Notes: generated by a model from the sequence alone, not told the origin. A DNA stretch of 64,000 bases from a virus (IMGVR_UViG_3300029720_000418:3344-67343), one strand, 5' to 3'. Counted from the stretch's first letter, positions 8,775 to 34,367 are shown. Made by a program: numbers and translations.

Positions 8775-8776
8775 AA

Positions 8777-9360: not shown

Positions 9361-9362
9361 TA

Positions 9363-9929: not shown

Positions 9930-9948
9930 TAGGAAAGGAGCTTATATA

Positions 9949-14106: not shown

Positions 14107-14137
14107 AATTATATTTAAGAAAAGGAGATAGAAAATT

Positions 14138-14614: not shown

Positions 14615-14715
14615 AATCAGCAGAGGCTTGATCGTGATCGGTTGAGCCTCTTTCTTTTTAGAGCTTCTTATGATATACTCATTTATATTTTAAGGAGAAA
14701 AAGGAGGATTCTCAT

Positions 14716-15090: not shown

Positions 15091-15152
15091 CCAACACACC
15101 AAGGACTCTCAGAAATGGGAGTCTTTTTTATTTGCTCAGAAAGGAGATAAAA

Positions 15153-15419: not shown

Positions 15420-15422
15420 GAT

Positions 15423-15896: not shown

Positions 15897-15916
15897 AAGA
15901 ATTGGAGGGTTAAGAT

Positions 15917-16609: not shown

Positions 16610-17846
16610 GCCGTTTCTGTACGATTATCAGATGGATGCTGTAAATCATATGTTCAATGGGTGCATTCTCAATGGTGGTGTTGGATCGGGAAAGAGTAGA
16701 ACCGGATTATATTACTACTTCAAAGAACAAGGCGGTAGTATAAATCCAGACTATAAACCGATGAAAAAACCAAAAGATTTATATATTATCACAACCGCTA
16801 TGAAACGGGACAAGCTTGAATGGGATGGAGAATTAGCAAACTTCTTATTGTCCAGAGACGCTAAGAAGAACACATTGAATGGCAACGTAAAAATCGTTGT
16901 TGATTCGTGGAACAGAGTAAAAAAATACATGGCTGTGGAAAATGCGTTCTTCATATTTGACGAACAAAGGGTTGTTGGATCGGGAACTTGGGTTAAGGCA
17001 TTTTTAAAGATAGCCAAAAACAATGATTGGATATTATTATCAGCAACAGCTGGCGATAAATGGCCTGATTATATTCCGGTATTTATAGCAAACGGTTTTT
17101 ATAAAAATCGATCTGAGTTTATTCGGGAACATATTGTATATTCTCGATATACAAAATATCCACAGATTGATAAGTATTTGAACGTCGGACGTCTAATTCG
17201 ATTAAGGAATAAAATTCTGATTGATATGGAATTTAAACGTCCAACGACAGCTCATCACAATGATATTTATGTAACATATGATGTCACTAAGTACAAATCG
17301 GTTGTAAAAAATAGATGGGATCCGTACAAAAATGAACCCATCCAGCAAGCATCAAGTCTTTGTTATATTCTGAGAAGAATAGTGAATGAAGACGAATCCA
17401 GAATAGTAGCTCTATTGGAGATTCTTGAGAAGACTCCTAGAGCTATTATTTTTTATAATTTTGATTACGAGCGAGAGATGCTATTACATGTTTTCAGCAA
17501 CCACGATGAAACAGATAAAGACTTTGAAGTAGCGGAATGGTCTGGACATGCCCACCAACCTGTGCCAGGAACAAAGCGATGGGTATATTTGGTGCAGTAC
17601 ACGGCTGGATGCGAAGGCTGGAATAGTATTAAGACAGACACGATTATATTCTACTCACAGAATTACAGTTATAAGGTTGTGACACAGGCTGCCGGTCGAA
17701 TTGATCGTCTGAATACGCCATTCAAAGATCTATATTATTATCATCTGAAAAGTCGAAGTGGAATTGACCTCGCCATTAGCAAAGCATTGAAGGAGAAGAA
17801 AAAGTTCAATGAAGCAAAGTGGTGTAAAAATTCATTCGCGAAATAA
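16599..17846 (+). CDS. SF2 (DEAD/DEAH-like) helicase
   Basis: Motif I GGVGSGKS, motif II FIFDEQR, motif III LSATAG, motif VI QAAGRIDR. The start could instead be the GTG at 16590. Confidence 0.7.
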   Translation: MPTKPFLYDYQMDAVNHMFNGCILNGGVGSGKSRTGLYYYFKEQGGSINPDYKPMKKPKDLYIITTAMKRDKLEWDGELANFLLSRDAKKNTLNGNVKIVVDSWNRVKKYMAVENAFFIFDEQRVVGSGTWVKAFLKIAKNNDWILLSATAGDKWPDYIPVFIANGFYKNRSEFIREHIVYSRYTKYPQIDKYLNVGRLIRLRNKILIDMEFKRPTTAHHNDIYVTYDVTKYKSVVKNRWDPYKNEPIQQASSLCYILRRIVNEDESRIVALLEILEKTPRAIIFYNFDYEREMLLHVFSNHDETDKDFEVAEWSGHAHQPVPGTKRWVYLVQYTAGCEGWNSIKTDTIIFYSQNYSYKVVTQAAGRIDRLNTPFKDLYYYHLKSRSGIDLAISKALKEKKKFNEAKWCKNSFAK

Positions 17847-17862
17847 TCATGCCCTTATATGA
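17835..17862 (+). promoter_or_regulatory. conserved promoter-like motif copy (overlaps the helicase stop codon)
   Basis: TTCGCGAAATAATCATGCCCTTATATGA. Confidence 0.45.
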
Positions 17863-17880
17863 GAGGAAAGGAGTGATTAT

Positions 17881-18135
17881 ATGCGAGATTATGAATATTT
17901 AATTTCCATAGCATTGCGAGATAAACTGAAAGAATCAATTAAAGGAAGAGTATTCTGTAAGGTTGAATACGATTATTTATACATATCTATTCAGACAAGA
18001 GAATTAGATAGGTTTGAATATAAGGTATACGATTTTGCGGACAAACTCATAACCGGAAGATTGATTGTAGATGAGATTGCAGCAACTGTGGTAGCTAATT
18101 ATAAGAAATATATATTGGCATATTTCACATATTAG
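17881..18135 (+). CDS. hypothetical protein (84 aa)
   Basis: RBS AAAGGAGTG. Promoter copy 17835-17862 overlaps the helicase stop codon. Confidence 0.5.
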   Translation: MRDYEYLISIALRDKLKESIKGRVFCKVEYDYLYISIQTRELDRFEYKVYDFADKLITGRLIVDEIAATVVANYKKYILAYFTY

Positions 18136-18140
18136 TGGAT

Positions 18141-18176
18141 GAAGACTCGGTGAAAACATCGGGTCTTTTGTTTTTT
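18141..18176 (+). terminator. rho-independent terminator
   Basis: AAGACTCGG...CGGGTCTT followed by TTGTTTTTT. Confidence 0.5.
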
Positions 18177-18195
18177 AGGAGGTATAAATATTTAT

Positions 18196-18441
18196 ATGAC
18201 AATTGAAAGATGGCAACAGGAATTCGCAGATCGTTTACGCGATAAGATGAATGAACGTGGATGGAGCATTCACAAAACAGCAAAGGAATCCGGTTTAAGT
18301 ATCATGACAATATCTAAGTATATAAATGCGCTGGTAGTTCCGAGATGTACGGAATTGATGAAACTTGCTAATGCTTTCAGTGTAAATCCTTCATATTTCA
18401 TAGATTTTGGCGAGTCAGTTGAGTTTTTGATAGGGAGGTGA
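18196..18441 (+). CDS. XRE-family HTH transcriptional regulator
   Basis: HTH SIHKTAKESGLSIMTISKYING, typical of the Cro/CI-type fold. RBS TAGGAGGT. Confidence 0.65.
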   Translation: MTIERWQQEFADRLRDKMNERGWSIHKTAKESGLSIMTISKYINALVVPRCTELMKLANAFSVNPSYFIDFGESVEFLIGR

Positions 18442-18446
18442 TTAAG

Positions 18447-18599
18447 ATGGAGTATGGATATAAAGAAGTTGAGTTCTGGAAATATTGTGAGAAATGTAAG
18501 CACTATGAAGTGGAAGATGTAAAGGATCCATGTAATGATTGCTTAGATGAGCCAGTGAATTTGCATTCAACAAAGCCAGTGTATTTTGAGGAGAAGTAA
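18447..18599 (+). CDS. zinc-ribbon mini-protein (50 aa, CxxC...CxxC)
   Basis: Below the ORF-track cut-off. RBS GGGAGGTG with an ATG at spacing 6. Sequence contains CEKCKHY and CNDC. Confidence 0.35.
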   Translation: MEYGYKEVEFWKYCEKCKHYEVEDVKDPCNDCLDEPVNLHSTKPVYFEEK

Positions 18600-18601
18600 A
18601 T

Positions 18602-18808
18602 ATGGTATGTAAATGTGGTGGTAAACTGATGTCTTGCGATCAGGTACATACGCCAGGGAATAAAATAATTCGGAAACGAAAATGCAAGGAATGTGGAAAA
18701 TTTTCATATTCAGTCGAATTAATTGTTGATTACAATGAAAAGGTAAAACGAGTGTGGAATATGAATCACAGAAAAGCAAAACCAAAAGAGGAGGTAGAAA
18801 AAATATGA
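18602..18808 (+). CDS. zinc-finger small basic protein
   Basis: CKCGG....CKECG pairs. RBS GAGGAG. Confidence 0.45.
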   Translation: MVCKCGGKLMSCDQVHTPGNKIIRKRKCKECGKFSYSVELIVDYNEKVKRVWNMNHRKAKPKEEVEKI

Positions 18809-19155
18809 TACATATATTGGTATTGACAAAAGATCCATGCGAAAAAGCCGTATTTGCTAAACGGGTGCAGTCGGCACTTAATACCTTATGCAGCGTGAAG
18901 CCTGGATTAACCACGAATATTTATGTGAAAGATATAAATATTCAGGTTACGAGTGTCGTTCATAAGACTGGAGATGCTATTGGAGATATTCATTTACAAC
19001 CGGATTATTATATCGATGATTCTGGTGTAAGTCTAAGTGATATTTTAAGTGATTTATGCAGAGGGGCAGAACGATTAAAAAGTGTTGTAGATGTAGTATC
19101 AATTGTAAAAAATCGAGATCATTATGCTAAGCATGAAGCATATAACAGAATTTAA
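18805..19155 (+). CDS. hypothetical protein (116 aa)
   Basis: ATG 7 nt after AGAGGAGGTAG. Its start overlaps the previous stop (ATGA). Confidence 0.5.
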   Translation: MIHILVLTKDPCEKAVFAKRVQSALNTLCSVKPGLTTNIYVKDINIQVTSVVHKTGDAIGDIHLQPDYYIDDSGVSLSDILSDLCRGAERLKSVVDVVSIVKNRDHYAKHEAYNRI

Positions 19156-19169
19156 AAGGGGTGATATTT

Positions 19170-19376
19170 ATGGCGATGGCATTTGTAATCATAGTTATGT
19201 CTGTTTGGATCGGCATTGGTTATTGGCTTGCATACCATGAGGCTCCAGACGGAACTTATATATTGAATAGTAATTATATTTATATAGTTACATTATGGCC
19301 GGTGTATTTGATATTCGCCGGCTTTTATTGGTTGATTTGTGTCGTATGTTGGAAGATCGAGGATTTGAGGAGGTGA
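19170..19376 (+). CDS. small membrane protein (two TM)
   Basis: ATG after GGGGTGA. Hydrophobic. Confidence 0.45.
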   Translation: MAMAFVIIVMSVWIGIGYWLAYHEAPDGTYILNSNYIYIVTLWPVYLIFAGFYWLICVVCWKIEDLRR

Positions 19377-19466
19377 TTAAGATGGAGTTTGACGGAGATT
19401 GGAAATTTCTCAAAAACGACTGCTTCAATCAAAGACTATCACCCATTCGAAAGGAGGGCTAAAAGC

Positions 19467-19697
19467 ATGGATGACAATGAAAATGACGCACTACAAATAG
19501 AAATGAATCAAAGGTTAAGCGTGCTCCAGAACCAGCTTGATTATTTGGTTGGTAACATCAATCGGTTTCCAACGACTCTACAGTTAGAAATACTTGGTTT
19601 TTTGACTTCACTCATGAACACAATGGTATCGACTACAGATGAAGTAGCAGCGTTGTATACAAAAGCAGTAATTGCGTTGGGTGATTTCGAAAAGTAA
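19467..19697 (+). CDS. hypothetical protein (76 aa)
   Basis: ATG after GAAAGGAGGG. The track start 19389 has no RBS. Confidence 0.4.
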   Translation: MDDNENDALQIEMNQRLSVLQNQLDYLVGNINRFPTTLQLEILGFLTSLMNTMVSTTDEVAALYTKAVIALGDFEK

Positions 19698-19722
19698 TTT
19701 ATATTTTATGGAGGGAATAATT

Positions 19723-20616
19723 ATGGCAGAAAAATTTACAGAATTATTTAAAATGTTTTGTGCAGATGTGAAAGATGAAGTGGCTAAGTTATGTGGCTTC
19801 GATGTGGAAGTACGTGACGTTACAAAAAATAACGGTGTGAAGAGAAAGGGATTATACTTTGGAGAGGGGAGATATTCCCCAATTATATATTTAGAGCCTT
19901 ATTTTGACATTAAATTTATCAAAAATAAGGAGGCAATCAATGACATTGCAAACCAGATATACGAGATATATAAGGAAAATAAGGCTGAGACTAAAAAATA
20001 CGATGTTGAAAACGCAGTTGAACATTGGAAAGATGCAATTTACCTCGAAGTTATAAATTATGAGGCAAATAAAGATGTACTGGAATTATGTCCGCATATT
20101 CGTTTTTTAGATTTGGCAATTGTGTTTAGATTGTTATTATATATAGACGAATCTGGTAGAGCATCGGTGCTATTTGATGATATTCCTGATAATAGCAATC
20201 TGGACGAAATGTATAACATTGCTAAAGAAAATACTATTAAGTTCTTTGGTGTGGTTAACAGAAATATCTATGATTTATTATTAAGTATGAATGAAGATAT
20301 TGGGGAATTAATATCTATTGATCGTTCAATGTACGTACTCACAAACAAGACTTTTACTGGAGGAGCAAATTTGATTGTTATCCCTGAGGTATTAAAGGGA
20401 CTTTGTGAGGAATTAGAAATCAATAGTTGCTATATAGTTCCATCTTCAACTAATGAAGTAATTATTATATATGGAAGCGATGCTGATTCTATGACCGAAT
20501 CAATACAGAGCACTATTAAACATATAAATGATAATGAGGTTCCGGACACAAAGGTATTGTCGTATAACTTATATCAGTTCAGCATGGAAACCGGATTGGT
20601 GTCGATCGTGAAGTAA
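19723..20616 (+). CDS. hypothetical protein (297 aa)
   Basis: ATG after GGAGGGAAT. Confidence 0.55.
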   Translation: MAEKFTELFKMFCADVKDEVAKLCGFDVEVRDVTKNNGVKRKGLYFGEGRYSPIIYLEPYFDIKFIKNKEAINDIANQIYEIYKENKAETKKYDVENAVEHWKDAIYLEVINYEANKDVLELCPHIRFLDLAIVFRLLLYIDESGRASVLFDDIPDNSNLDEMYNIAKENTIKFFGVVNRNIYDLLLSMNEDIGELISIDRSMYVLTNKTFTGGANLIVIPEVLKGLCEELEINSCYIVPSSTNEVIIIYGSDADSMTESIQSTIKHINDNEVPDTKVLSYNLYQFSMETGLVSIVK

Positions 20617-20635
20617 ATATATTTTGAAGACTCGG

Positions 20636-20674
20636 TATGGCAGGTATCGGGTCTTTTCTTTTTGAAAGGAGATA
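20636..20674 (+). terminator. rho-independent terminator
   Basis: GAAGACTCGG...CGGGTCTTTTCTTTTT. Confidence 0.5.
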
Positions 20675-20679
20675 ATGAA

Positions 20680-20979
20680 ATGGCAGATAGAAATAATATT
20701 GATGAGTTTGTTAAATTATTTGAGGAGAGGTTGTATGAGAAGCTTCCATTTTCAATATTTCAACATGAGAAGGATGATGAACAGGAATATGTGACGCTTA
20801 AAGTGACTTCGACATATAAGGGCACAATGTACAGATACCGTCATATCATGGATTATGTCGAAATTAATAATTTTTATGATATTATGCATGGTTTGGAGAA
20901 TCTTGCTGATTATGTTGTGGAGCTTTTATATCGTGAATTTTTAGACAAATTTGAAGAGATTCAAAGTACGGAGGAATAG
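20680..20979 (+). CDS. hypothetical acidic protein (99 aa)
   Basis: ATG after AAAGGAGATAATG. A terminator lies upstream at 20636-20674. Confidence 0.5.
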   Translation: MADRNNIDEFVKLFEERLYEKLPFSIFQHEKDDEQEYVTLKVTSTYKGTMYRYRHIMDYVEINNFYDIMHGLENLADYVVELLYREFLDKFEEIQSTEE

Positions 20980-20992
20980 GCCATGAATTTTT

Positions 20993-21199
20993 ATGAATTT
21001 TTATGAATTCAATAGAAAGTTAACTAAGACATTTGGCGATTTCTATATTTTAGCAAAGGATAAAAAGCCTTGCGCTGTTTGCGGAAATCTTACGAATAGA
21101 GTTGATATTCATTATGAGCAGCGGGTTTGTAGCAATCGGTGCAGAAGCATTTTGGATACCGGATTGGCAAAGCAGGAAAGCGAAGGAGAGGTTATATGA
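20993..21199 (+). CDS. small Cys-containing protein (CAVCG...CSNRC)
   Basis: The start lies in a triplicated ATGAATTTTT(A) stretch at 20983-21005. RBS ACGGAGGAA. Confidence 0.45.
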   Translation: MNFYEFNRKLTKTFGDFYILAKDKKPCAVCGNLTNRVDIHYEQRVCSNRCRSILDTGLAKQESEGEVI

Positions 21200-21357
21200 G
21201 TAATGATATTTTCAGCATGTATACGAAAGATCAAAACAAAAAGACAGGACGTAAAGGTTATGGGCAGTGGAAGCATGAAAAAGAAACATTCATCCGTCCT
21301 GCCGATTACGGAAATTATATTTTTGAGAAAAAGAGAGGTAAAAAGAGATGTGGTTAA
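21196..21357 (+). CDS. small basic protein (53 aa)
   Basis: ATG after AGGAGAGG. An overlapping frame, 21203-21403, is judged spurious. Confidence 0.35.
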   Translation: MSNDIFSMYTKDQNKKTGRKGYGQWKHEKETFIRPADYGNYIFEKKRGKKRCG

Positions 21358-21519
21358 TTGGGTTTGTTGTGGTGCTTATTATATGGCTTGGTTTCTACAT
21401 TGAAGAATCTATCATGCATTATTTAACTGGTGTAAGCATCTTAGATCAGATTAAAAAATGGCTAAGAATACAAAGCCCTAGTGGGTGTATGAGTAGTGAT
21501 TGTAAGGAGGTAAAAAGAG

Positions 21520-21780
21520 ATGATTAAATTAAGAGATTTATTACAACAGTGTAGTTGCGATGTTTATATTTTTGGAAATGGTAACTGTCCATGCCCAGAA
21601 ATAAAACTTCCAAAACCGCTTGTGAAGGCGGAAAAATATTTGAATGCTGATATTTTGAATCAGGGTGTGCGGAATATATCCATATGTGATGGACATTTGC
21701 AGGTTTGGCTGGAAGATAAATCTATTCAAGACGTTGTTGATTCTAAGTTAAAAGAAATGGAGGATGAAAGTAATGAGTAA
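21520..21780 (+). CDS. hypothetical Cys-rich protein, paralog of 23488-23685
   Basis: Both proteins start MIKLxDLL and share a ...VWLE C-terminal motif. RBS AAGGAGG. Confidence 0.5.
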   Translation: MIKLRDLLQQCSCDVYIFGNGNCPCPEIKLPKPLVKAEKYLNADILNQGVRNISICDGHLQVWLEDKSIQDVVDSKLKEMEDESNE

Positions 21781-22510
21781 TATGTTAGATTGGGCTAAAA
21801 AGGAAGTTGAAATTGCATGTAAGAAAGAAAATCCAAACAGAAAAGATGGAGAGTTTGATTATGGATGTGCCTGTTACGAGAGCGCATTAAAAGCTTTTCA
21901 AAGCTTATGCGAAGATGATCATTCTGGTTTCAGTATTAGAATGACTCAGGCGATATTGAATCGGCTCATAAATGGTAAACCATTAACACCGATTGAGGAT
22001 ACCGACGAGGTATGGAGTGATATTTCTGATATGAGTGGTCTGAAGGGAGAAGAGCGTAACTATCAGTGCAAACGCATGTTTTCCTTATTTAAGTATGTAT
22101 ATGCTGACGGAACTGTCAAGTACAAGGATAATAACCATTCATACTGTGTCAGCATTCATAACTGCAATGATACATATTCTTTTGTAATGGTTGAAAGAAT
22201 TATTGACGAGATGTTTCCTATAACAATGCCGTATATGCCAGGAAAACCAATCGAAGTTTATTGCGAAGATTTCTTAACAGATAAAAAGAACGGCGATTTT
22301 GATACTGTCGGAGTGTTCTATGCGCTGAAAACAGAGGATGGTAAACAGGAGAAGATTGAGATTAACAGATTCTTCAGAGAACCAGAAGGCGATGAAGAGG
22401 GTAACTGGACTGAGATATCTAAGGAAGAATATTACGAGAGGAAGGAGAGACAGATAACTGCTGCTGATATTTCAAGAGAGATTAAAGAAGCAATGGAGGA
22501 TGAGAAGTAA
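21773..22510 (+). CDS. hypothetical protein (~245 aa)
   Basis: ATG 8 nt after GGAGGA. The alternative start 21764 is in the same frame. Confidence 0.55.
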   Translation: MSNMLDWAKKEVEIACKKENPNRKDGEFDYGCACYESALKAFQSLCEDDHSGFSIRMTQAILNRLINGKPLTPIEDTDEVWSDISDMSGLKGEERNYQCKRMFSLFKYVYADGTVKYKDNNHSYCVSIHNCNDTYSFVMVERIIDEMFPITMPYMPGKPIEVYCEDFLTDKKNGDFDTVGVFYALKTEDGKQEKIEINRFFREPEGDEEGNWTEISKEEYYERKERQITAADISREIKEAMEDEK

Positions 22511-22603
22511 ATGTAATTGAAGCTATATAGAGTCATAACTCGAGTTCATTTTAATGAGTGGATTCGAGTTATTTTTATGCATAGTCAAGAAAGGAGATAA
22601 ACC

Positions 22604-23446
22604 ATGAAAAAATATGAATTAACAAATGAAACAATCGAATATAAAGGAAAAAAATTATATAGAATTAAGGCTCTAATTGATTTTGGAAATGTAGAAAAAG
22701 GAGCTCGTGGTGGGTTCGTTGAAAAAGAGGAAAATCTTAGTATGTCTGGTAATGCTTGGGTATGTGATAATGCTCGGGTATGTGATAATGCTCGGGTATG
22801 TGGAGATGCTAATGTGTGTGGTGATGCTTTTGTGTCTGATAATGCTCAGGTGTCTGGTGATGCTTTTGTGTGTGGTAATGCTTGGGTATGTGATAATGCT
22901 CGGGTATGTGGAGATGCTAATGTGTGTGGTAATGCTTGGGTATGTGATAATGCTCAGGTGTCTGGTGATGCTCGGGTGTCTGGTAATGCTCAGGTGTCTG
23001 GTGATGCTCGGGTATGTGATAATGCTCGGGTATGTGATAATGCTCGGGTATGTGGAGATGCTAATGTGTGTGGTGATGCTTTTGTGTCTGATAATGCTCA
23101 GGTGTCTGGTGATGCTTTTGTGTGTGGTAATGCTTGGGTATGTGGTGGTGCTAATGTGTGTGGAGATGCTAATGTGTGTGGTGATGCTAATGTGTGTGGT
23201 GATGCTCAGGTGGATAAGAGCATCAATTATGCCGTGATCAAAGGTTTCGGCACTTGTTATAGATCTACGACATTTTTCAGATGTCAAGACAAAACAGTAA
23301 AAGTATCCTGCGGATGTTTTTTAGGAACCATCGACGAATTCAGAAATCAAGTAAAAAACACGCGTGGAGGAAAAATTGCAAAAGAATATTTAATGATTGC
23401 TGATCTAATGGAAATACATTTTTCGGAGGATGGATACGATGGTTAA
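22604..23446 (+). CDS. Cys-rich hexapeptide-repeat (left-handed beta-helix-like) protein with a globular C-terminal domain
   Basis: About 27 consecutive hexads of [GDN][DN]A[RWFNQ]V[CS], encoded by 18-bp tandem DNA repeats at 22744-23215. RBS AAAGGAG. Confidence 0.6.
   Translation: MKKYELTNETIEYKGKKLYRIKALIDFGNVEKGARGGFVEKEENLSMSGNAWVCDNARVCDNARVCGDANVCGDAFVSDNAQVSGDAFVCGNAWVCDNARVCGDANVCGNAWVCDNAQVSGDARVSGNAQVSGDARVCDNARVCDNARVCGDANVCGDAFVSDNAQVSGDAFVCGNAWVCGGANVCGDANVCGDANVCGDAQVDKSINYAVIKGFGTCYRSTTFFRCQDKTVKVSCGCFLGTIDEFRNQVKNTRGGKIAKEYLMIADLMEIHFSEDGYDG
22744..23215 (+). repeat. 18-bp tandem repeat array (~27 units) encoding the hexapeptide repeats
   Basis: The unit GG(T/A)(G/A)ATGCTNNNGT(G/A)T(G/C)T recurs. 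A ~140-bp higher-order block (22743-22890) is duplicated at ~23020-23150. Confidence 0.7.
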
Positions 23447-23487
23447 AAAATTTTAAGATGCATCACAGTAGAAAGGAGATGAGAAGA

Positions 23488-23685
23488 ATGATTAAATTAG
23501 AAGATTTACTTGCTGTTGCAAAAAACAATATAGCAATAATGAATGGTAGCTTTCAATCGATTGTGGTTAATGTTTGTCATCTCGAAGACTTGCCGTTACC
23601 TGATAGTCTATTAAAACGTAACATAAAAGAAATGGAAGCAAAAGATGATATTATTTTAGTTTGGTTGGAAGGGTATGGTGATTAG
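23488..23685 (+). CDS. hypothetical protein, paralog of 21520-21780
   Basis: ATG after AGAAAGGAG. Starts MIKLEDLL and contains ...VWLE. Confidence 0.5.
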   Translation: MIKLEDLLAVAKNNIAIMNGSFQSIVVNVCHLEDLPLPDSLLKRNIKEMEAKDDIILVWLEGYGD

Positions 23686-23687
23686 AA

Positions 23688-23963
23688 ATGATTAAATTGG
23701 AAAACGTGGTTCTGGCGAGTCCGGAGCAGATGGATTTTATTATTGAAGGTATGCGGAATCCTATGAATTCGTGGGATAGGAGTGATAGTTATATTGATGC
23801 GCCCAATAAAAATTGTAATGGTCAATCTGGAGATTCTTTCCATGTGTTAGGAGACAACGATCACGACTTGATGCAGCGCTTGGCAGATGCTGGATCGGTT
23901 CATAGAAAGTATATGCGGATGATGCCGGTATATGTGAGAATCACAGCACCTTTATATTGGTAG
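23688..23963 (+). CDS. ThyX-like (flavin-dependent thymidylate synthase family) N-terminal fragment
   Basis: Follows the ThyX N-terminal pattern up to ...VRITAPLYW (compare VKAPIFVARQW). It then hits a stop. The RHR/SxRY core is not present in this ORF. Confidence 0.45.
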   Translation: MIKLENVVLASPEQMDFIIEGMRNPMNSWDRSDSYIDAPNKNCNGQSGDSFHVLGDNDHDLMQRLADAGSVHRKYMRMMPVYVRITAPLYW

Positions 23964-24066
23964 TTCTTTCTGCCAATGAAACACTTTTCCTAGTTATCGC
24001 TAGGGGTCACATTTTGTGGCTAACGGGGAACCACCCATTGGAATCCCGTGGGAAACATTTCAAATA

Positions 24067-24094
24067 TTCGCGAAATTTACAAGGTGTATTATGA
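24067..24094 (+). promoter_or_regulatory. conserved promoter-like motif copy inside the ThyX interruption
   Basis: TTCGCGAAATTTACAAGGTGTATTATGA. Confidence 0.5.
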
Positions 24095-24284
24095 GAGAAT
24101 AGACACTCGAAAGGGCAGTGAAGTTTGAGGATCCAAGCATCATTGGAAACTAATCGGGAAGGAGATAATAGTGAAAACTATGCACGAGGCTAGATCGAAA
24201 GATGAACTATATTGAAAGATATACCATGAGCCTGAGGGAAATATCGGCGTCCTTCGAGTGGAATTGATGTATTCTCTTTTCTTT

Positions 24285-24312
24285 TTCGCGAAAATTACAT
24301 CTCCTATTATGA
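24285..24312 (+). promoter_or_regulatory. conserved promoter-like motif copy inside the ThyX interruption
   Basis: TTCGCGAAAATTACATCTCCTATTATGA. Confidence 0.5.
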
Positions 24313-24326
24313 AAGGAGTGATATTT

Positions 24327-24515
24327 ATGGCAAAAGAATATATTGTTAAAGCGACTAAGTACGGAAGAGACTGGAAAAAAATAGGAGAGGGTATTGATTT
24401 TCTAGAAGATAATAAAAAATATCGACTAGAATTTCATGCTACTGGATTAATCCAGGCTATCCGAGTAAAAATAGCGTTTAAACAAAATAAACGGTTTAAA
24501 TATTACACTTATTGA
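24327..24515 (+). CDS. small protein (62 aa) within the ThyX interruption
   Basis: Has its own promoter copy (24285-24312), RBS AAAGGAGTG and a downstream terminator at ~24520-24560. Confidence 0.4.
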   Translation: MAKEYIVKATKYGRDWKKIGEGIDFLEDNKKYRLEFHATGLIQAIRVKIAFKQNKRFKYYTY

Positions 24516-24756
24516 AAGAGGGACTCAGCAATAACGCTGGGTCTTTTCTCTTTTATATTTTGCGACGAATATCAAAATGAACCTGTAGAGGCTATCCCCT
24601 ATGCCTTCTGGGCGGGGGAGTAGGGCTACTATTGATACGTAGCTGGGTTTTAGGAAACGAAGCCCATGAAAACCGAAATGGTGTCCTATTGTTTATATTA
24701 TTGTGTGTGAAAAATTATGGTGGATTTATATTTTATAGAAAGAGAGGTGATATAGA

Positions 24757-25197
24757 ATGACAGAAAATTATTTAAGTCATCATGGAGTAAAAGGACAGAA
24801 GTGGGGTGTTAGAAAAGAAATATATAATTCGTCAAGTAGATCTCGCAAAAGAGAGATAAGAAAGGAATACTATAAGACCCCAGAAGGACAAATTAAAAAG
24901 GCAACTACTAAAGCTACAATGTTAGGTGGCCCATTGGCTGGTATTATTGCCGGACAAATAACTTTAAGAAAAGTTAGAAGAAAAATAGACGCTACAAAAA
25001 ATAATAAATTGTCATCTGTCGATAAAGACACTATAGAAAAAGGAAAGAAAAAAGTAGAAGCTCTTCCAAATAACCGCAAGATAGAAACAGATGAGCAAAA
25101 GATAAAACGTCTTATGTCAGAAGGGAAAATAAATCCGAAAGCTAATCATATATTTGACCAAAATGGGAATTTGATGATGGTTTACTGGGATGATTAA
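24757..25197 (+). CDS. lysine-rich basic protein, HHGVxGxKWGVR family member 1
   Basis: N-terminal LSHHGVKGQKWGVRK. Paralogs at 35712-36347 and 38137-38676. RBS GAGAGGTGA. Confidence 0.6.
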   Translation: MTENYLSHHGVKGQKWGVRKEIYNSSSRSRKREIRKEYYKTPEGQIKKATTKATMLGGPLAGIIAGQITLRKVRRKIDATKNNKLSSVDKDTIEKGKKKVEALPNNRKIETDEQKIKRLMSEGKINPKANHIFDQNGNLMMVYWDD

Positions 25198-25296
25198 TTA
25201 TGATAAGCACACAAAAACAATAGTAAAAGATAGTCCATTAATGGGAAAGAATTTGATACATATAAGGTAGGTACTGTCGCAAACTCTTGCAGTACG

Positions 25297-25734
25297 ATGC
25301 ACAAGATTGCTGAGAAAGAATTTACGCTGGAAGATTTTAGCTGTGAGCATTTGATTTCAGACTGGATCGGAGATAATAACGATGCTATCTGGTATAAAGA
25401 CCCGCCTAAAAATGGATCGATTGAATGCCCGATAATATTTTCTCCTCTGGATGCTTTAAGAACCACTATTGGAGTATTAAATACGAACCGAGAAGCTTAT
25501 CTTAAAACAAAAGACAAAAAGTTCTGGTGGCAGATGATTCAGCTTCTTCCGAGTAGTTATAACCAGACACGTAATGTCATGATGAATTATGAGGTGCTGG
25601 CAAATATTTATCGGTGGAGAAAAGATCATAAGCTGGACGAATGGCGAGAGTTTTGTAAGTGGATCGAGGGCTTGCCATATGGTGAGCTGATTACTGGATT
25701 ACCTATTGAATCCGATGATGCAGACGAAGATTAA
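25297..25734 (+). CDS. ThyX-like C-terminal fragment
   Basis: LLPSSYNQTRNVMMNYEVLANIYRWRKDHKLDEW aligns with the ThyX segment LPxxxxTxxxxxxNxRxLxNFxxLRxDxHAQxEI. The open frame extends upstream to 25234. Confidence 0.45.
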   Translation: MHKIAEKEFTLEDFSCEHLISDWIGDNNDAIWYKDPPKNGSIECPIIFSPLDALRTTIGVLNTNREAYLKTKDKKFWWQMIQLLPSSYNQTRNVMMNYEVLANIYRWRKDHKLDEWREFCKWIEGLPYGELITGLPIESDDADED

Positions 25735-25745
25735 GGAGGAATATT

Positions 25746-25970
25746 ATGATAGGAGTTAAATTAACTATTGTTCTATTTGTAATAACAGTAGTATCAATAA
25801 TTGTTATTACAGCAGTTGTTAGAGCATTGGATTTTAAAACTAAGTTTTTAATCAGTTTAGGTGAAGGACCAAAATGGCTTGAAAATGTTTTAACATTTCT
25901 AGGGTTCTTGGAGCTTTTAGATTTCATTGGAGTCATATATTCAGTTATATGGCTCTTATTTTTTAGGTAG
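25746..25970 (+). CDS. small membrane protein (2 TM)
   Basis: ATG after GGAGGAATATT. Hydrophobic. Confidence 0.45.
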   Translation: MIGVKLTIVLFVITVVSIIVITAVVRALDFKTKFLISLGEGPKWLENVLTFLGFLELLDFIGVIYSVIWLLFFR

Positions 25971-25981
25971 GAGGAATAATT

Positions 25982-26521
25982 ATGGCAGAATTAAATCCTA
26001 AAACAGATGCGACAAAGAAAGTCATACATTTAATGGTTACACCATTATGTAATAGAAATTGTAGGTATTGTTGTAATAAACAATATGATATAAATGATAT
26101 TTCTTATGTTACCGATGAGGAATTAAGAGAAGCTGAGGTTCTTTGCTTAACGGGCGGGGAACCTTTTTTGTTTACGGATCCATGTTGGATCGCCCGGCAT
26201 TACAAAAGGAGATATTCAAACATAAAAAAAGTATATGTATATACTAATGCCAAAGAATTATATCTTTGGTTAGCGGGTTACAATCTCATACATAATATTG
26301 ACGGCTTGAATGTCTCTATTAAAAACAAAGATGATTTATATTTCTTCAAAGAACTTGTTCACAATTATCAAAATCAAATTTGTGTTGATAATTGCATGAG
26401 TAATCGAGTTTATATTTTTGATAGTTTGATTCCCGATGACCTTGGAATATTTGAACCAATTATTCGGGAATGGCAGGAAGATTTTAAACCAGCGCCTGAT
26501 AGTATATTTAGAAGATTATAA
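25982..26521 (+). CDS. radical SAM enzyme (small, QueE/NrdG-like size class)
   Basis: CxxxCxxC (CNRNCRYC) near the N-terminus. Glycine-rich LTGGEPFL SAM-binding motif. RBS GGAGGAAT. Confidence 0.65.
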   Translation: MAELNPKTDATKKVIHLMVTPLCNRNCRYCCNKQYDINDISYVTDEELREAEVLCLTGGEPFLFTDPCWIARHYKRRYSNIKKVYVYTNAKELYLWLAGYNLIHNIDGLNVSIKNKDDLYFFKELVHNYQNQICVDNCMSNRVYIFDSLIPDDLGIFEPIIREWQEDFKPAPDSIFRRL

Positions 26522-26540
26522 GGAGGAGTAATTATGGCAG

Positions 26541-26819
26541 ATGCAAAAAAAATGTGATAGATGCGGTAAGTTTTATGTTGAGAATAGGCAAGAATTTACA
26601 GGATGTATGTTAAAACATTGCAATTTAATGGCATCAAGTAATATACATTTTGATTTGTGTGACGAATGTATTGGAAAGTTGTGGACTTTTCTTAACTTTC
26701 CGGTCGAGATAGACGATGCGATAGATCATTATAATCAAACAAAGGAAGATGGTAAAGGTTCGGATGACACTTCAACACTCGATACTGTAAAGATGAATGG
26801 ACGTTCCACATCACTTTAA
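26541..26819 (+). CDS. zinc-ribbon protein (CDRCG ... CDEC)
   Basis: RBS AGGAGGAG. Two CxxC pairs. Confidence 0.5.
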   Translation: MQKKCDRCGKFYVENRQEFTGCMLKHCNLMASSNIHFDLCDECIGKLWTFLNFPVEIDDAIDHYNQTKEDGKGSDDTSTLDTVKMNGRSTSL

Positions 26820-26826
26820 ATTGTTT

Positions 26827-26855
26827 TTCGCGTAGAAAACGTACCATTTTATGGA
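26827..26855 (+). promoter_or_regulatory. conserved promoter-like motif copy (variant; duplicate of the 2210 cassette)
   Basis: TTCGCGTAGAAAACGTACCATTTTATGGA. Confidence 0.45.
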
Positions 26856-26865
26856 GGTGATATTT

Positions 26866-30054: not shown

Positions 30055-30081
30055 CCGCGGAAATATCATGCCCTTTTATGA
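30055..30081 (+). promoter_or_regulatory. variant promoter-like motif (same 3' half as the 17835 copy)
   Basis: CCGCGGAAATATCATGCCCTTTTATGA, followed by a structured ~110-nt leader. Confidence 0.35.
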
Positions 30082-30192
30082 GAGGAAAGTGTGATATTCT
30101 GTATTTCACAACATTTCCTCTTACCTTTGACTTTGGAACGTACTCCGGTGTCCTTCGGGCCCGGGGTCATTTATATTTAAGGAGGGGTTAAA

Positions 30193-30483
30193 GTGAAAGA
30201 GAATAAGTTTCAGGCAGGATTAAAAAAGAAACTTAAAACGATGTTCCCCGGATGTATAGTAACCAAACTTGATTCGAGTGATATCCAAGGCATTCCAGAT
30301 TTACTTGTCTTATATAAAGATAAATGGGCTGCCTTAGAAGTCAAGAAAGAGGCGAAAGCTTCTCATAGACCGAATCAAGATTACTATGTTGAGAAAATGA
30401 ATGAGATGTCATTTTCCAGATTTATATTTCCAGAAAATGAGGAGGACGTATTAAATGAACTTCGTGAAACATTCAAATCTTGA
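30193..30483 (+). CDS. VRR-NUC-like PD-(D/E)xK nuclease
   Basis: GIPDLLVLY...AALEVKK...Q matches the VRR-NUC core. GTG start after AAGGAGGGG. A long structured leader runs from promoter 30055-30081. Confidence 0.5.
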   Translation: MKENKFQAGLKKKLKTMFPGCIVTKLDSSDIQGIPDLLVLYKDKWAALEVKKEAKASHRPNQDYYVEKMNEMSFSRFIFPENEEDVLNELRETFKS

Positions 30484-31009
30484 GGGGCTTCATGCTCCAT
30501 TCAGCGCAAGCCAGTCGGCATGGCTTAGATATGACACTGAAAAAGCACTAACCGTATATGATAATATGCGGGCAAAAGAAAGAGGAACAAAGCTTCATGA
30601 TTGGGCTAAGAGAACTATTGACTTAGGAATCAAGCAGCCCAGATCAAATAAAACCTTGTATGCGTATGTCAATGATGCTATTGGTTTTAAGATGAGTACC
30701 GAAGTGGTGTTATATTATTCGCCATATTTCTTTGGTACAGCTGATGCTATATCATTTAGGAATAATAAATTAAGAATACATGATCTTAAGACTGGAAAGT
30801 CCGGTCATATGGAGCAGCTTGAAGTATACGCTGCTCTTTTTTGTTTGGAGTACAAAATCAAACCAGGAGATATACAGATGGAGTTGCGATTATATAAGGA
30901 CAATGAAGTAATTGTTCATGAGCCAACTGCTGAAGATATTTTACCGATTATGGATAAGATCATGTCTCTTAACAAAGCATTGGAAAACTTTGATGATAGG
31001 GAGGTGTAG
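30455..31009 (+). CDS. PD-(D/E)xK-family nuclease-like protein
   Basis: FGTADAISF...LRIHDLKTGKS...EQLEVY fits a D...D/ExK core. Start uncertain, in the range 30455-30479. Confidence 0.45.
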   Translation: MNFVKHSNLEGLHAPFSASQSAWLRYDTEKALTVYDNMRAKERGTKLHDWAKRTIDLGIKQPRSNKTLYAYVNDAIGFKMSTEVVLYYSPYFFGTADAISFRNNKLRIHDLKTGKSGHMEQLEVYAALFCLEYKIKPGDIQMELRLYKDNEVIVHEPTAEDILPIMDKIMSLNKALENFDDREV

Positions 31010-31012
31010 ATA

Positions 31013-33988
31013 TTGAATCCTATTGCAGAAGAAATTGAATCATATCATGGATGTGGCTCGATGACAACGACTGAATTCCTTGAGCATTATGGAATGCCTA
31101 GAAGATCGGGCAGATATCCATGGGGTTCTGGTGGAGATCCATATCAGCATGAGAGAGACTTCCTTAGTCGAGTTGAAGAATTAAAAGCAACTGGCTGGAC
31201 AGAAACTCCGGAGAATATTAAAGAGACATTCGGATTGACGACAACACAGTATCGTACAGAGAAAGCTCTGGCTAAAGATGAACGAAGAATGTATGACGTA
31301 GCAAGAGCAAAGTCACTCAGAGATGATGGTCTTGGAGCAACAGAGATTGGACGTAAGATGGGTATCAATGAATCGACAGTCAGATCATTACTTAATCCAC
31401 ATTCTGAACAGCGTATGGAGCAGGCGAGAAACACTGCAAAATATTTGAAAGAACAAGTGGATAAGAAAGAAATGGTTGAGGTTGGTACAGGTGTAGAGCG
31501 AGAGCTGAATATTTCAAAGGAGAAATTAGATCAAGCTCTCTATCTGTTGCAGAGAGATGGATATAACGTTTACAAAGGTGGAATACCACAGGCAACCAAC
31601 CCAGGGCAGCAGACAAATCAGAGAGTATTATGTAAGCCTGGAATTGAGCATAAAGAAATATATGATTTCAATAGAGTACAGTCCTTGAAAGATTACATTT
31701 CGAGAGATGGCGGTGATACTTTTGAAAAGAAGTTCCATTATCCAGAGAGCATGGATTCAAGGCGATTGGCTATCCGTTACAAAGAAGATGGGGGAATCGA
31801 CAAGGATGGAGTAGTAGAGCTTCGTCCTGGTGTTGCTGACTTATCGCTTGGCGAATCTCGTTATTCTCAGGTTCGTATTATGGTTGACGGTAAGAAATAC
31901 ATAAAGGGTATGGCTGTTTATGGAGATCCAAAAGATTTTCCCGATGGTGTTGACGCTATCTTCAATACAAACAAATCTAAGTCAGTAGCAAAGATGGATG
32001 TGTTGAAAGACATCAAGAATGATCCAGACAATCCTTTTGGTTCACTCATCAAAGATGCTGATCAAGGAGGTCAGTATTGGTATGATGATCCAAAGACTGG
32101 TAAAAAGAAACTTGGATTAATCAATAAAAGATCCGATGAGGGTGATTGGACTGAATGGAAAGACACGTTACCATCTCAGTTTTTAGCAAAGCAGTCATTG
32201 AGAATGGCGGGTAAACAGCTGGATTTAGCCAAGGCAGACAGAAGAGATGAGTTTGAAGAGATTAAATCTATCACGAACCCTGTGATTAAAAAACATTTCT
32301 TAGAAAAATTTGCTGATAGTTGTGATTCAGCATCAGTTCATTTGAAAGCAGCAGCGTTACCGGGGCAGAAATACCATGTAATACTTCCTATCAATTCTTT
32401 AAAGGAGAACGAAGTGTATGCTCCTGGATATACGCCAGGAACTAAGTTAGCATTGATTCGTTATCCGCATGGTGGAACATTTGAAATTCCAATACTTACT
32501 GTTACTGATAAAAATCCAGAAGGTAGAAGAATAATCGGAACCGAATCTATTGATGCAGTCGGTATTAATCACACGGTTGCTGAGCGTTTATCAGGAGCCG
32601 ATTTTGATGGTGATACTGTTATGTGTATCCCAACACACGACAAAGCAGGAAGGGTTAAGATCGCCTCAACGCCTCCATTAAAAGGTCTTGAGGGATTTGA
32701 TCCAAAAATGTCATACCCAGAACGTCCTGGTATGAAATATATGAAAGACCCAAAGACTGGTAAAGACAATACTCAGAATGAAATGGGGAGAATTTCAAAC
32801 CTTATCAGTGATATGACCTTAGCAGGAGCACCACCAGAAGAAATGGCTAGAGCAGTAAGACATTCTATGGTAGTTATTGATGCTGGAAAACATAAGTTGG
32901 ACTACAAGCAAAGTGAGATTGATAACAACATTAAAGCATTGAGGAAAGAATATCAGGTTAAGACAGATAAGGATGGAAACATTACTGGCTATGGTGGTGC
33001 CGCTACTATCATTTCAAGAAGTAAGGGCGAATCTACAATAAACAAACGCCAAGGTACGCCCAAGATTAATCTTAAGGGTAAAGAATGGTATGACCCAAGC
33101 AGACCTGAAGGTGCACTTATCTATAAAGATGCAGATAACCTATACTACCCAGATCGTAAGCAAGAAAAAGGTATCGTGGAGTTACGTACCGTGGATGGTA
33201 AAAAAGTAACCTACTCCTATGCCGATAAGGATGCGGTAGATAGGTATGCCCCAGTAGAGAGGAGAGACCCTGCTACCGGAAAAGTCACATTCACTAATAA
33301 AGATGGAAGCATAGAGTATCGAACCAAGGTTCATACACAGAAGAGTACCAATATGGCTGATACTGATGATGCATACACTCTAGTATCAAAGGCTAGACAC
33401 CCTATGGAACTTCTATATGCCGATTATGCCAATGATATGAAAGCATTAGCGAATCAGGCACGTGTTGAACTAGCTAATACAAGTAAGGTGGCATATAACC
33501 GAAATGCCAACACAATGTATAAAGCAGAGGTTAAGTCGTTGGATGAGAAACTTAATAATGCATTATTAAATGCTCCTAGAGAGCGTGCCGCGCAACGAAT
33601 GGCTAATGCTGAAGTACAAAAGAAACAATTGGACAATCCTGATTGGAAGTCTGCTGATGTTAAGAAAGCGAGTCAGCAAGCATTAACAAAGTTTCGACAA
33701 GAAGTTGGCTCTGTCTCGAGAAGAGCTCGAAACATACAGATTACAGACAATGAATGGAAAGCTATTCAAGCTGGAGCAATCAGTGAAAGTAAATTAAAGA
33801 AGATTCTTAATAATGCAGACATTGATGAATTGAGACAACGTGCCACACCAAGACAGACAAAAGCTATGACCGAATCTCAAATCAATCGTGCAAAAGCAAT
33901 GTCTTCTTCGAACTTCACATTAAAACAGATCGCAGATGCTTTAGGTGTCTCAACATCAACAGTTTCAAAGTATTTGAAAGGAGCGTGA
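31013..33988 (+). CDS. single-subunit RNA polymerase with beta-prime-type double-psi beta-barrel (YonO/crAss-vRNAP-like), flanked by HTH domains
   Basis: LALIRYPHGGTFEIPIL at ~32455-32500 matches the beta-prime NRAPTLHRLGIQAFEPVL region. GADFDGDTVMCIP at 32594-32632 matches NADFDGDQMAVHVP. Sigma-region-4-like HTHs lie at the N-terminus (~31300-31390) and the extreme C-terminus (~33900-33985). Confidence 0.6.
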   Translation: MNPIAEEIESYHGCGSMTTTEFLEHYGMPRRSGRYPWGSGGDPYQHERDFLSRVEELKATGWTETPENIKETFGLTTTQYRTEKALAKDERRMYDVARAKSLRDDGLGATEIGRKMGINESTVRSLLNPHSEQRMEQARNTAKYLKEQVDKKEMVEVGTGVERELNISKEKLDQALYLLQRDGYNVYKGGIPQATNPGQQTNQRVLCKPGIEHKEIYDFNRVQSLKDYISRDGGDTFEKKFHYPESMDSRRLAIRYKEDGGIDKDGVVELRPGVADLSLGESRYSQVRIMVDGKKYIKGMAVYGDPKDFPDGVDAIFNTNKSKSVAKMDVLKDIKNDPDNPFGSLIKDADQGGQYWYDDPKTGKKKLGLINKRSDEGDWTEWKDTLPSQFLAKQSLRMAGKQLDLAKADRRDEFEEIKSITNPVIKKHFLEKFADSCDSASVHLKAAALPGQKYHVILPINSLKENEVYAPGYTPGTKLALIRYPHGGTFEIPILTVTDKNPEGRRIIGTESIDAVGINHTVAERLSGADFDGDTVMCIPTHDKAGRVKIASTPPLKGLEGFDPKMSYPERPGMKYMKDPKTGKDNTQNEMGRISNLISDMTLAGAPPEEMARAVRHSMVVIDAGKHKLDYKQSEIDNNIKALRKEYQVKTDKDGNITGYGGAATIISRSKGESTINKRQGTPKINLKGKEWYDPSRPEGALIYKDADNLYYPDRKQEKGIVELRTVDGKKVTYSYADKDAVDRYAPVERRDPATGKVTFTNKDGSIEYRTKVHTQKSTNMADTDDAYTLVSKARHPMELLYADYANDMKALANQARVELANTSKVAYNRNANTMYKAEVKSLDEKLNNALLNAPRERAAQRMANAEVQKKQLDNPDWKSADVKKASQQALTKFRQEVGSVSRRARNIQITDNEWKAIQAGAISESKLKKILNNADIDELRQRATPRQTKAMTESQINRAKAMSSSNFTLKQIADALGVSTSTVSKYLKGA

Positions 33989-33993: not shown

Positions 33994-34245
33994 ATGAATT
34001 ATCAATCTTTATTGACAACAACAGATAATCCATTCGATCCATTCGAGCAGTTCACGCAATGGCAATTGTTTGATGCTCAAAAAGGAAGAGATACGTGTGG
34101 TTATTTGATGCGAATTGCCAAAATTTCAGATGATATGTCTGAAGTTGAGTGCGATAAAGAAATAAATCGAGCAATTGATGAAATTATTGCAGAAAATCCT
34201 TTAGGAATTTACACAAAAGTTACAAAAGAGCTCGTTTTGGGCTAG
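33994..34245 (+). CDS. hypothetical protein (83 aa)
   Basis: ATG 4 nt after the RNAP stop. Followed by GC hairpins and a T-run. Confidence 0.5.
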   Translation: MNYQSLLTTTDNPFDPFEQFTQWQLFDAQKGRDTCGYLMRIAKISDDMSEVECDKEINRAIDEIIAENPLGIYTKVTKELVLG

Positions 34246-34367
34246 ATATGTGGTGGAAAAAGCATAGAGGGGGGTCTGAAAAAACGCACCCCCTCCCTGC
34301 ATCGCCGCCCTCTTTGAAAATTCCCCGGAGGGATTTTTTATATTTGAGTTTCATGATACTTGTAAGG

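Follow-up and report, generated by a model that had tools for sequence, protein, structure and literature searches.

Single-chain relatives of the core of cellular RNA polymerase (RNAP) are models for the ancestral enzyme and for a minimal transcription machinery, and to our knowledge experimental or structural work on such enzymes from phages is limited to a few, namely YonO, the enzymes of phage P23-45 and gp66 of crAss-like phages. YonO, from the Bacillus prophage SPbeta, holds two double-psi beta-barrels (DPBB) in a single chain and transcribes late genes. P23-45 gp64 was shown experimentally to be a promoter-specific, DNA-dependent non-virion RNAP, and gp96 of the same phage is a virion RNAP that is fused to the tape measure protein. 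The enzyme gp66 of the crAss-like phage phi14:2 is also of the two-barrel type, and the virion RNAP of phage N4 is a T7-like enzyme with a right-hand fold. Here we describe a gene for a 991-residue protein, located near the middle of a viral DNA stretch of 64,000 nucleotides (IMGVR_UViG_3300029720_000418:3344-67343, hereafter the window), whose product contains two such barrels flanked by a helix-turn-helix (HTH) domain at either end. The protein is a member of a family already predicted to consist of two-barrel polymerases, and its homology is not new. What is new is the link of the gene to a candidate promoter that occurs in phages from two bacterial phyla, together with a hint of packaging, so far overlooked, in the record of Lactococcus phage 1706.

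The open reading frame (ORF) starts with TTG behind the ribosome-binding site GGGAGGTG. All the peptides that an earlier sequence-only reading of this DNA had named are present in its translation: the catalytic peptides LALIRYPHGGTFEIPIL (residues 479-495) and GADFDGDTVMCIP (residues 528-540), and the HTH peptides LGATEIGRKMGINESTVRSLL (residues 107-127, N-terminal) and FTLKQIADALGVSTSTVSKYLKG (residues 968-990, C-terminal). Only the spacer between the two catalytic peptides (...EIPIL to GADFDGD) had been miscounted, as it comprises 32 residues rather than 40. Residues 17-990 match positions 6-907 of 909 in the profile phrog_4291, annotated as 'RNA-dependent RNA polymerase' (E=0, 1209 bits), and ORF75 of phage 1706 is 39% identical from end to end over 1036 columns, with the same architecture of N-terminal peptide, HTH, two barrels and C-terminal HTH, the same neighbours and the same promoter-like motif. 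Within this family the window protein represents a new lineage. Its best match among GenBank phages reaches 60% identity (MT835495, unannotated, from human faeces), and its nearest relatives, at 99%, are metagenomic. No near-identical phage DNA was found; the one match, at 73%, was to an unannotated contig from faeces and covered the terminase region. A search of a plasmid collection gave no match.

The class had been called rare in the sequence-only reading, a view that does not hold: the catalytic core matches 1,207 clusters at 50% identity, nearly always at residues ~230-700 of proteins of 900-1050 residues, and 250 cultured phage records carry the gene. The cultured phages infect Arthrobacter, Gordonia, Streptomyces and Lactococcus, and gut phages add to these. 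The family has also been predicted in print. Among the five 'YonO-like' families of Ruprich-Robert and Thuriaux (2010), one has the phage 1706 protein as its type, and Koert et al. (2021; bioRxiv 10.1101/842583) described for the same family the HTH at both ends, the DxDGD loop and an HHpred match of the family alignment to the Pfam model for RNA-dependent RNA polymerase (RdRP) with a probability of 95.7%, and presented the gene as a signature of an actinobacteriophage supercluster together with Lactococcus and Faecalibacterium phages. Papers from 2024 and 2026 only repeat the RdRP name. This is also the name used by RefSeq; FP_oengus carries a 'putative RNA polymerase', and most depositors chose 'HTH DNA-binding protein'.

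Conservation was assessed in 38 aligned homologs, which belong to three clades and have identities down to 38%. Residues R483, P485, H486 and G488 as well as the run S527-G528-A529-D530-F531-D532-G533-D534 are invariant, and a second invariant block comprises D265-G266, R288 and K298-G299. Because of this invariance the catalytic motifs are not chance matches, and the barrel signature with its aspartate triad and RxP element, as put forward in the sequence-only reading, is borne out. The metal triad D530/D532/D534 and the RxP residues R483 and P485 make up five of the eight universal residues of two-barrel polymerases. For the remaining three, one aspartate and two basic residues, invariant candidates in a barrel-like strand pattern are D265 (or D276), R288 and K298-G299, and from sequence and secondary structure D265, R288 and K298 are candidate active-site residues of the beta-subunit-like barrel, DPBB-B. 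The helical segment that follows the beta-prime-like barrel, DPBB-A (residues ~585-648), is inferred to be the equivalent of the bridge-helix region, and the subsequent beta-rich insertion at residues ~649-780 is longer than in the family members from actinophages.

A model of the protein was calculated with AlphaFold2 from the 38-sequence alignment. Its mean confidence score (pLDDT) is 79.3, with values of 85-93 for the barrels and connecting helices, and only residues 1-47 are disordered. In a Foldseek search against the PDB the first 17 matches were all QDE-1 or RDR2 (E 5e-8 to 1.5e-3). The fold matches to the PDB further include P74-26 gp62, and RDR2, the enzymes of phages AR9 and phiKZ, P23-45 gp96 and isolated double-psi barrels come next. 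All that a fold search of BFVD contributed were further phage proteins with the name 'RNA dependent RNA polymerase'. As gp62 is a homolog of the experimentally characterized polymerase gp64, the assignment as a two-barrel RNA polymerase is well supported by the model, and the fold and domain layout proposed in the sequence-only reading agree with the conserved residues, the HTH calls and the fold matches. Sequence searches recovered the HTH domains but reached no solved polymerase. With phmmer and a profile search against PDB sequences, only HTH matches and an insignificant one to a beta-prime subunit (7s01_d, E 1.8) were obtained, the 25 best of 31 Pfam families at E<=10 were all of HTH type with no RdRP among them, and the NCBIfam scan returned HTH-type families only.

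QDE-1, with RDR2 the closest solved fold, is 10-13% identical to the phage protein but lacks HTH domains and belongs to the biology of RNA silencing, and the relation of the family to QDE-1-type RdRPs is remote. P74-26 gp62 and P23-45 gp64 show 14% identity, and these Thermus phage enzymes also are without fused HTH domains; in contrast to gp96, the window polymerase is a free protein. YonO is a single-chain two-barrel enzyme from a Firmicute phage, as is the case here, and contains analogous short motifs (RSPH...DNDGD for RYPH...DFDGD, and VRLPWVKG for VRI...IKG), but it has no HTH ends and serves late genes, whereas the motif in the window lies in the early and middle region. The proposed likeness to YonO could not be detected by sequence: hhalign of the 38-sequence profile against YonO gave a probability of 0.3% and no aligned core, in a comparison that used a single sequence as target and leaves room for very remote homology. 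The likeness to crAss gp66 fared no better, as phi14:2 gp66 does not figure in the 50-60 matches that were listed for each PDB search; it is much larger than the window polymerase and devoid of HTH ends. Entry 6VR4, which the sequence-only reading had given as YonO-like, we take to be the structure of this crAss-like gp66. The N4 virion RNAP is likewise much larger and without HTH ends, and for the N4 and crAss-like virion enzymes we see a possible functional analogy only, consisting of a packaged polymerase, early genes and unusual promoters.

At both termini the HTH domain scores above the Pfam cut-off for sigma factor region 4, in line with the sequence-only reading. Sigma70_r4_2 scores 27.4 bits at residues 105-127 (cut-off 25.7) and Sigma70_r4 29.1 bits at residues 968-989 (cut-off 24.1), where HTH_23 reaches 33.9 bits, and in the TIGR02937 model for extracytoplasmic function (ECF) sigma factors residues 923-990 align to profile positions 97-156, the region-4 part. 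These scores show an HTH of that type, not a sigma function, and many generic HTH models score alike. The recognition helix of the N-terminal HTH, NES(T/S)VR, is kept across clades. Sigma factors, ECF factors included, are separate and dissociable subunits, whereas the HTH domains here are fused to the polymerase; the phage protein also lacks region 2 and hence a canonical reader of the -10 element. A single polypeptide with two double-psi barrels and an HTH at each end could thus unite catalytic and sigma-like function in one chain.

The DNA element that accompanies the gene has the consensus TCGCR-N4-WTTACAY-N3-CTATWATGAGA and a length of 28-30 nucleotides. The sequence-only reading had mentioned a 28-bp motif, and 19 copies are indeed present in the window, all of them on the + strand and spread from position 42 to 30055, where shuffled sequences give an expectation of 0.02. 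Thirteen of the 19 fall within the first 6 kb, and the structural module (34.5-61 kb) contains none. Copies are often found just past a terminator hairpin and ahead of a small ORF. One copy directly precedes the operon of two nucleases and the polymerase (Table 1); the others start at positions 42, 269, 450, 1074, 1526, 2211, 2511, 2798, 3054, 3344, 3502, 4586, 4892, 5931, 17836, 24068, 24286 and 26828.

Repeat searches in phage 1706 and Streptomyces phage Bilo each revealed a multi-copy motif in the early region, and the same element stands in the same register in all three phages (window TCGCGAAAATTACATACGCTATTATGAGAG, 1706 TCGCATGTTTTACATATACTATAGTAGAAA, Bilo TCGCACGTTTTACATGGCTTATAATGAGAC). 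A matrix derived from the window alone had missed the motif of 1706, and alignment of the 1706 and Bilo repeat families in register brought the relation to light. A clade-weighted matrix pooled from the three was tried on Arthrobacter phage JEGGS and Gordonia phage Kerry, neither of which was used in building it. It yielded 8 matches in JEGGS (19-31 bits) and 12 in Kerry (22-34 bits), all on the + strand, with one additional weak match on the - strand of Kerry. In each genome the matches are found where the early region begins, and a further one stands right in front of the nuclease-polymerase operon; the relatives L006 and L008 have an equivalent copy before this operon. A 50-kb stretch of SPbeta, taken as a control, produced a single weak match. 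Every clade examined has both the motif and the polymerase gene. The actinophages retain the motif in its AT-rich form, and across the same clades both HTH domains keep their recognition helices. Genome announcements for Gordonia cluster DJ list a '43-50-bp motif with a sigma-70 -10' and draw no link to the polymerase or to other clades, and Koert et al. do not mention the motif.

Further details of the motif copies were noted in passing. Those at 17836 and 30055 form a distinct subclass, ATCATGCCCTT[A/T]TATGAGAGGAAAG, one before the genes that follow the helicase and the other before the polymerase operon, and may constitute a temporally distinct promoter class. A segment of 55 nucleotides is duplicated with 98% identity at a distance of 24.6 kb (2457-2511 and 27031-27085), each copy ending in a hairpin and T-run directly before a motif copy, and near-identical leaders GGAGGTGATATTTATG occur at 2229 and 26846. 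Three paralogous genes of the family phrog_2152, of unknown function, are located in the early region (3709-4584, 5150-5929 and 7534-8466), several with a motif ahead.

Conservation of the motif raises the question of which polymerase reads it. The positions outside the hexamer, TCGC and TTACA, and their spacing are kept between phages of Actinobacteria and Firmicutes, and the motif contains no -35 element at 16-18 nucleotides from the hexamer. In the Firmicute phages a Shine-Dalgarno sequence often begins 0-4 nucleotides past the hexamer, for example TTTTATggaggtgatatttATG in the window and TATAGTagaaagaagg in 1706. Transcription from sigma-A promoters usually starts ~7 nucleotides downstream of the hexamer, and since such a start would remove the Shine-Dalgarno sequence it fits poorly in these phages; judged from the sequence, a start directly after the hexamer, as in T7-type promoters, would fit their geometry better. 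With no -35 element at the proper distance and the Shine-Dalgarno sequence too near the hexamer, a canonical sigma-A promoter was rejected as the sole explanation of the motif, although it stays the main rival in the form discussed below. We consider the protein to be probably a DNA-dependent phage transcriptase. That it initiates at the conserved motif is a proposal to which we incline with less assurance: the HTH domains would read the upstream TCGC and TTACA elements, and the AT-rich hexamer would be the region that melts, abutting the start site. Taken together, an active phage transcriptase with the motif as its promoter is the interpretation that we favour with modest confidence. From initiation at the motif it would follow that the polymerase drives its own operon and the genes of the early and middle region, and not the structural genes. 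The suggestion of the sequence-only reading that the enzyme recognizes promoters by itself is in this respect plausible, as recognition helices and promoter-like motif are both kept across phyla.

Several observations weigh against this interpretation. The hexamer is a nearly perfect TATAAT, and the Gordonia announcements read the motif as the -10 element of the host sigma-70. The geometry in actinophages, TATAAT-9 nt-ATG, is compatible with host-driven and nearly leaderless transcripts. The polymerase gene itself lies behind a motif copy, and the start of the cycle therefore needs either packaging of the enzyme or recognition by the host. On the side of the enzyme, neither the Pfam RdRP model (PF05183) nor the PDB sequence search gave a significant match, and the active-site residues of DPBB-B are candidates assigned from sequence. 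In the literature we found no biochemical or genetic assay of any family member, such that activity, template and promoter use are all inferred. Note also that to equate 'structural protein' in the 1706 record with presence in virions, as discussed below, is a reading suggested by the pattern of labels in that record.

The main rival is a YonO-like late transcriptase that works alongside host-read promoters. Here the host RNAP would read the TATAAT motifs and the phage enzyme, made as a middle protein, would transcribe the ~27-kb structural and lysis operon, either from a promoter in the cos-terS interval that has escaped recognition or by read-through of cos on circularised DNA. YonO, the one assayed enzyme of a firmicute prophage that the literature groups with the family, does transcribe late genes as one operon; the late module in the window is an uninterrupted block on the + strand without motif copies, and the motif has a good -10 hexamer. 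Moreover, the weakest motif variant precedes the polymerase operon, which points across cos into terS in a manner reminiscent of lambda pR'. However, this gives no reason why TCGC, TTACA and the distances between them should be conserved in phages of both Actinobacteria and Firmicutes, and it does not account for the missing -35 element, the Shine-Dalgarno geometry that is ill-suited to a sigma-A start and the label of the 1706 homolog as a structural protein, and the interval between cos and terS contains no promoter-like element common to all clades except the cos element itself. We regard a late transcriptase as unlikely, though by no means negligible.

The position of the gene at the close of the replication module, near the helicase and the VRR-Nuc and Cas4-like nucleases, and the ability of QDE-1 to act on single-stranded DNA as well (according to the titles of entries 7y7r and 7y7t) could also be taken to indicate an enzyme of replication that makes RNA primers or opens the origin by transcription. 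This appears improbable. The phage already has a primase-polymerase fusion, and two sequence-specific HTH domains, a strand-specific motif in many copies and the virion label would all be left unexplained. Even less credit is due to an RNA-dependent enzyme that copies phage or host RNA, for example into double-stranded or regulatory antisense RNA, in spite of QDE-1 and RDR2 being the closest solved folds and of the HHpred match of Koert et al. to the Pfam RdRP family. The name was inherited from remote homology and not from an assay, the genome is double-stranded DNA, a template of DNA is suggested by the DNA-binding HTH domains and by the DNA motif, and both the best structural match from phages, gp62/gp64, and YonO are DNA-dependent. 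Finally, the name 'HTH DNA-binding protein' preferred by most depositors, the location of the gene next to cos and a weak resemblance of the C-terminal HTH to those of terminase small subunits might suggest that the barrels are a mere scaffold in a cos-binding packaging accessory, a transcription factor or another DNA-binding or structural protein without relevant catalysis. The strict invariance of the triad, the RxP element and the basic residues in 38 sequences from two host phyla is not expected for an inactive protein and makes this the most improbable explanation of all.

A second line of evidence concerns the virion. In EU081845.1, the record deposited by the authors of the 1706 genome, ORF75 is a 'structural protein' without qualification, as are orf6, 7, 11, 12, 17, 20, 21 and 71, and bioinformatic calls in the same record are worded 'putative ...'. 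RefSeq replaced the label of ORF75 by 'RNA-dependent RNA polymerase', and the record of phage ReqiPepy6 repeats the original one ('1706_gp75, structural protein'). The structural proteins of 1706 were reportedly determined by gel electrophoresis (SDS-PAGE) and liquid chromatography with tandem mass spectrometry (LC-MS/MS). If the label does stand for detection in virions, an injected polymerase would answer the question of which polymerase acts first, and the early location of the motif would be natural. By analogy to the virion RNAPs of N4, crAss-like phages and P23-45, copies of the polymerase made late might be packaged in the capsid and injected, a tentative proposal for which the grounds to doubt slightly outweigh those to believe, and early transcription would then become independent of the host polymerase. 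Packaging had been argued in the sequence-only reading from the position of the gene, and this argument is weak, as cos lies between the polymerase gene and terS; the label in the 1706 record provides another line. The Arthrobacter phage paper contains no virion proteomics.

The N-terminus, predicted to be disordered, carries the invariant peptide HYGxxRxSGRYPWGSG, which may bind a partner or target the protein to the capsid. It loosely resembles the DUF7211 peptide (L-x-H-H-G-V-x-G-x-K-W-G), with a Pfam E value of 0.11 and an hhalign probability of 30% over 11 columns, and a capsid-targeting role common to both is an idea only. The DUF7211 peptide itself, in the longer form L-x-H-H-G-V-x-G-x-K-W-G-V-R, heads three otherwise unrelated ORFs in the window (35712-36347, 38116-38676 and 24757-25197). 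The large terminase gene lies between two of them, and the peptide also occurs in orf7 of 1706 ('structural protein'). A signal for targeting or processing that these proteins have in common is a possible role.

In its widest form, which we put forward as a speculation with more against it than for it, the proposal would be that siphoviruses of Actinobacteria and Firmicutes, with more than 250 in culture, carry in their virions a single-chain two-barrel RNAP of ~110 kDa with sigma-4-like HTH domains of its own, which once injected acts alone at the conserved double-stranded promoter of 28-30 bp, TCGCR-N4-WTTACAY-N3-CTATAATGAGA, and transcribes early genes without the host enzyme. If true, the phages would possess the smallest self-sufficient relative of the cellular RNAPs with promoter specificity known so far, and a host-independent transcription system that is functional in two bacterial phyla. 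The family is more accessible than the few enzymes studied to date, with hundreds of cultured phages and apparently its own promoter-recognition domains, and the link between gene and candidate promoter makes its function directly testable. Should the link hold, it would explain an identical early programme in hosts of different phyla, provide a compact orthogonal pair of polymerase and promoter for Gram-positive bacteria and correct the widespread misannotation as 'RNA-dependent RNA polymerase' or 'HTH DNA-binding protein'.

Table 1. Features of the polymerase gene, its product and its surroundings. Coordinates refer to the window; res, residues of the polymerase.
Feature	Coordinates	Strand	Evidence
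Polymerase gene, 991-aa single-chain two-barrel RNA polymerase (phrog_4291 / phage 1706 ORF75 family)	31013..33988	+	ORF, profile match, fold matches
N-terminal peptide HYGMPRRSGRYPWGSG, res 25-40, predicted disordered	31085..31132	+	H25, G27, S32, G33, R34, P36 invariant; pLDDT <50 for res 1-47
N-terminal sigma-region-4-like HTH domain, res ~60-128, HTH core 105-127	31190..31396	+	Pfam; helices H109-116, H120-126
Beta-subunit-like barrel DPBB-B, res ~245-322	31745..31978	+	Strand pattern E252-318; invariant D265, G266, R288, K298, G299
Beta-prime-like barrel DPBB-A, res ~450-545, RxPH 483-486, Mg-binding ADFDGD 529-534	32360..32647	+	Conservation, model, fold matches to RNAP largest subunits
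Helical segment after DPBB-A, res ~585-648, AVRHSMVVIDAxKHxLDY	32765..32956	+	Invariant block M591-Y647; helices H587-603, H608-627
C-terminal sigma-region-4-like module, ITDxEWxAIQAGAIS ... LATPR ... HTH 968-990	33719..33985	+	Pfam, TIGR02937
Motif copy CCGCGGAAATATCATGCCCTTTTATGAGAG directly upstream of the nuclease-nuclease-polymerase operon	30055..30084	+	Motif scan
18 further motif copies TCGCR-N4-WTTACAY-N3-CTATTATGAGA	42..26857	+	Intergenic
VRR-Nuc-like endonuclease, first gene of the conserved operon	30193..30483	+	phrog_93, E 3e-16; synteny in Bilo, Kerry, 1706
Cas4-like PD-(D/E)xK exonuclease, always directly upstream of the polymerase gene	30455..31009	+	phrog_3953, E 1e-71; neighbour annotations
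Small gene, 83 aa, phrog_4303, no Pfam match, always after the polymerase gene	33994..34245	+	Homologs in all clades examined
cos-junction element GGGGGGTC...CACCCCCT...CTGCATCGCCGCCCTC, GC-rich, then terminator-like hairpin	34267..34316		Same element at joined ends of Bilo and 1706

All genes of the window are encoded on the + strand, and the polymerase gene is the last of a replication module with a primase-polymerase fusion, a single-stranded DNA-binding protein and a helicase. The fusion protein (9949-14106, 1385 residues, phrog_4210) shows matches to primase families at residues ~120-435, and the phage thus has a primase of its own. The order of VRR-Nuc, Cas4-like nuclease, polymerase and small gene, followed by cos at the right end of the genome, is conserved. 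The small gene corresponds to Bilo gp58, 1706 orf76, P078_0078, JEGGS gp100, Kerry gp93 and Pepy6 gp107, and its product could act on the polymerase as a cofactor or a regulator. The cos junction was assigned because the same element spans the joined ends of Bilo and 1706, and because in ReqiPepy6 the annotated cos overhang is found at the same place, right after the homologous polymerase gene. In the linear genome the polymerase gene is therefore located at the far right, which is also its place in cultured relatives, and terS (34494), HNH, connector and TerL at the far left. The description of the gene in the sequence-only reading as standing just before terS is true within the window but misleading, given the conserved cos junction in between, and the 'head-module boundary' named there is an effect of reading a circular or concatemeric sequence. 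The cos element is kept between the low-GC window phage (~39% G+C), Streptomyces phage Bilo and Lactococcus phage 1706, and downstream of it a 12-bp inverted repeat, CTTATGATATGG / CCATATCATAAG, occupies positions 34369-34380 and 34459-34470.

Some features of the window lie outside this context. About 22 imperfect tandem repeats of 18 nucleotides (22635-23266) fall inside an ORF for a 280-residue protein (22604-23446; phrog_7964, phrog_5070), which consequently has a long stretch made up of six-residue repeats. A unit of 113 nucleotides occurs in three tandem copies, 80-88% identical, downstream of the holin region (61057-61395). After the lysis genes follow a DUF3592 protein (61523-62233) and a flotillin / SPFH (Band 7) protein of more than 503 residues (62489-64000), which may be unusual phage cargo or flanking host DNA. 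A tandem duplication of 63 nucleotides with 83% identity (56967-57092) is found inside an 892-residue ORF (56605-59283), a large gene of the tail region without a Pfam match.

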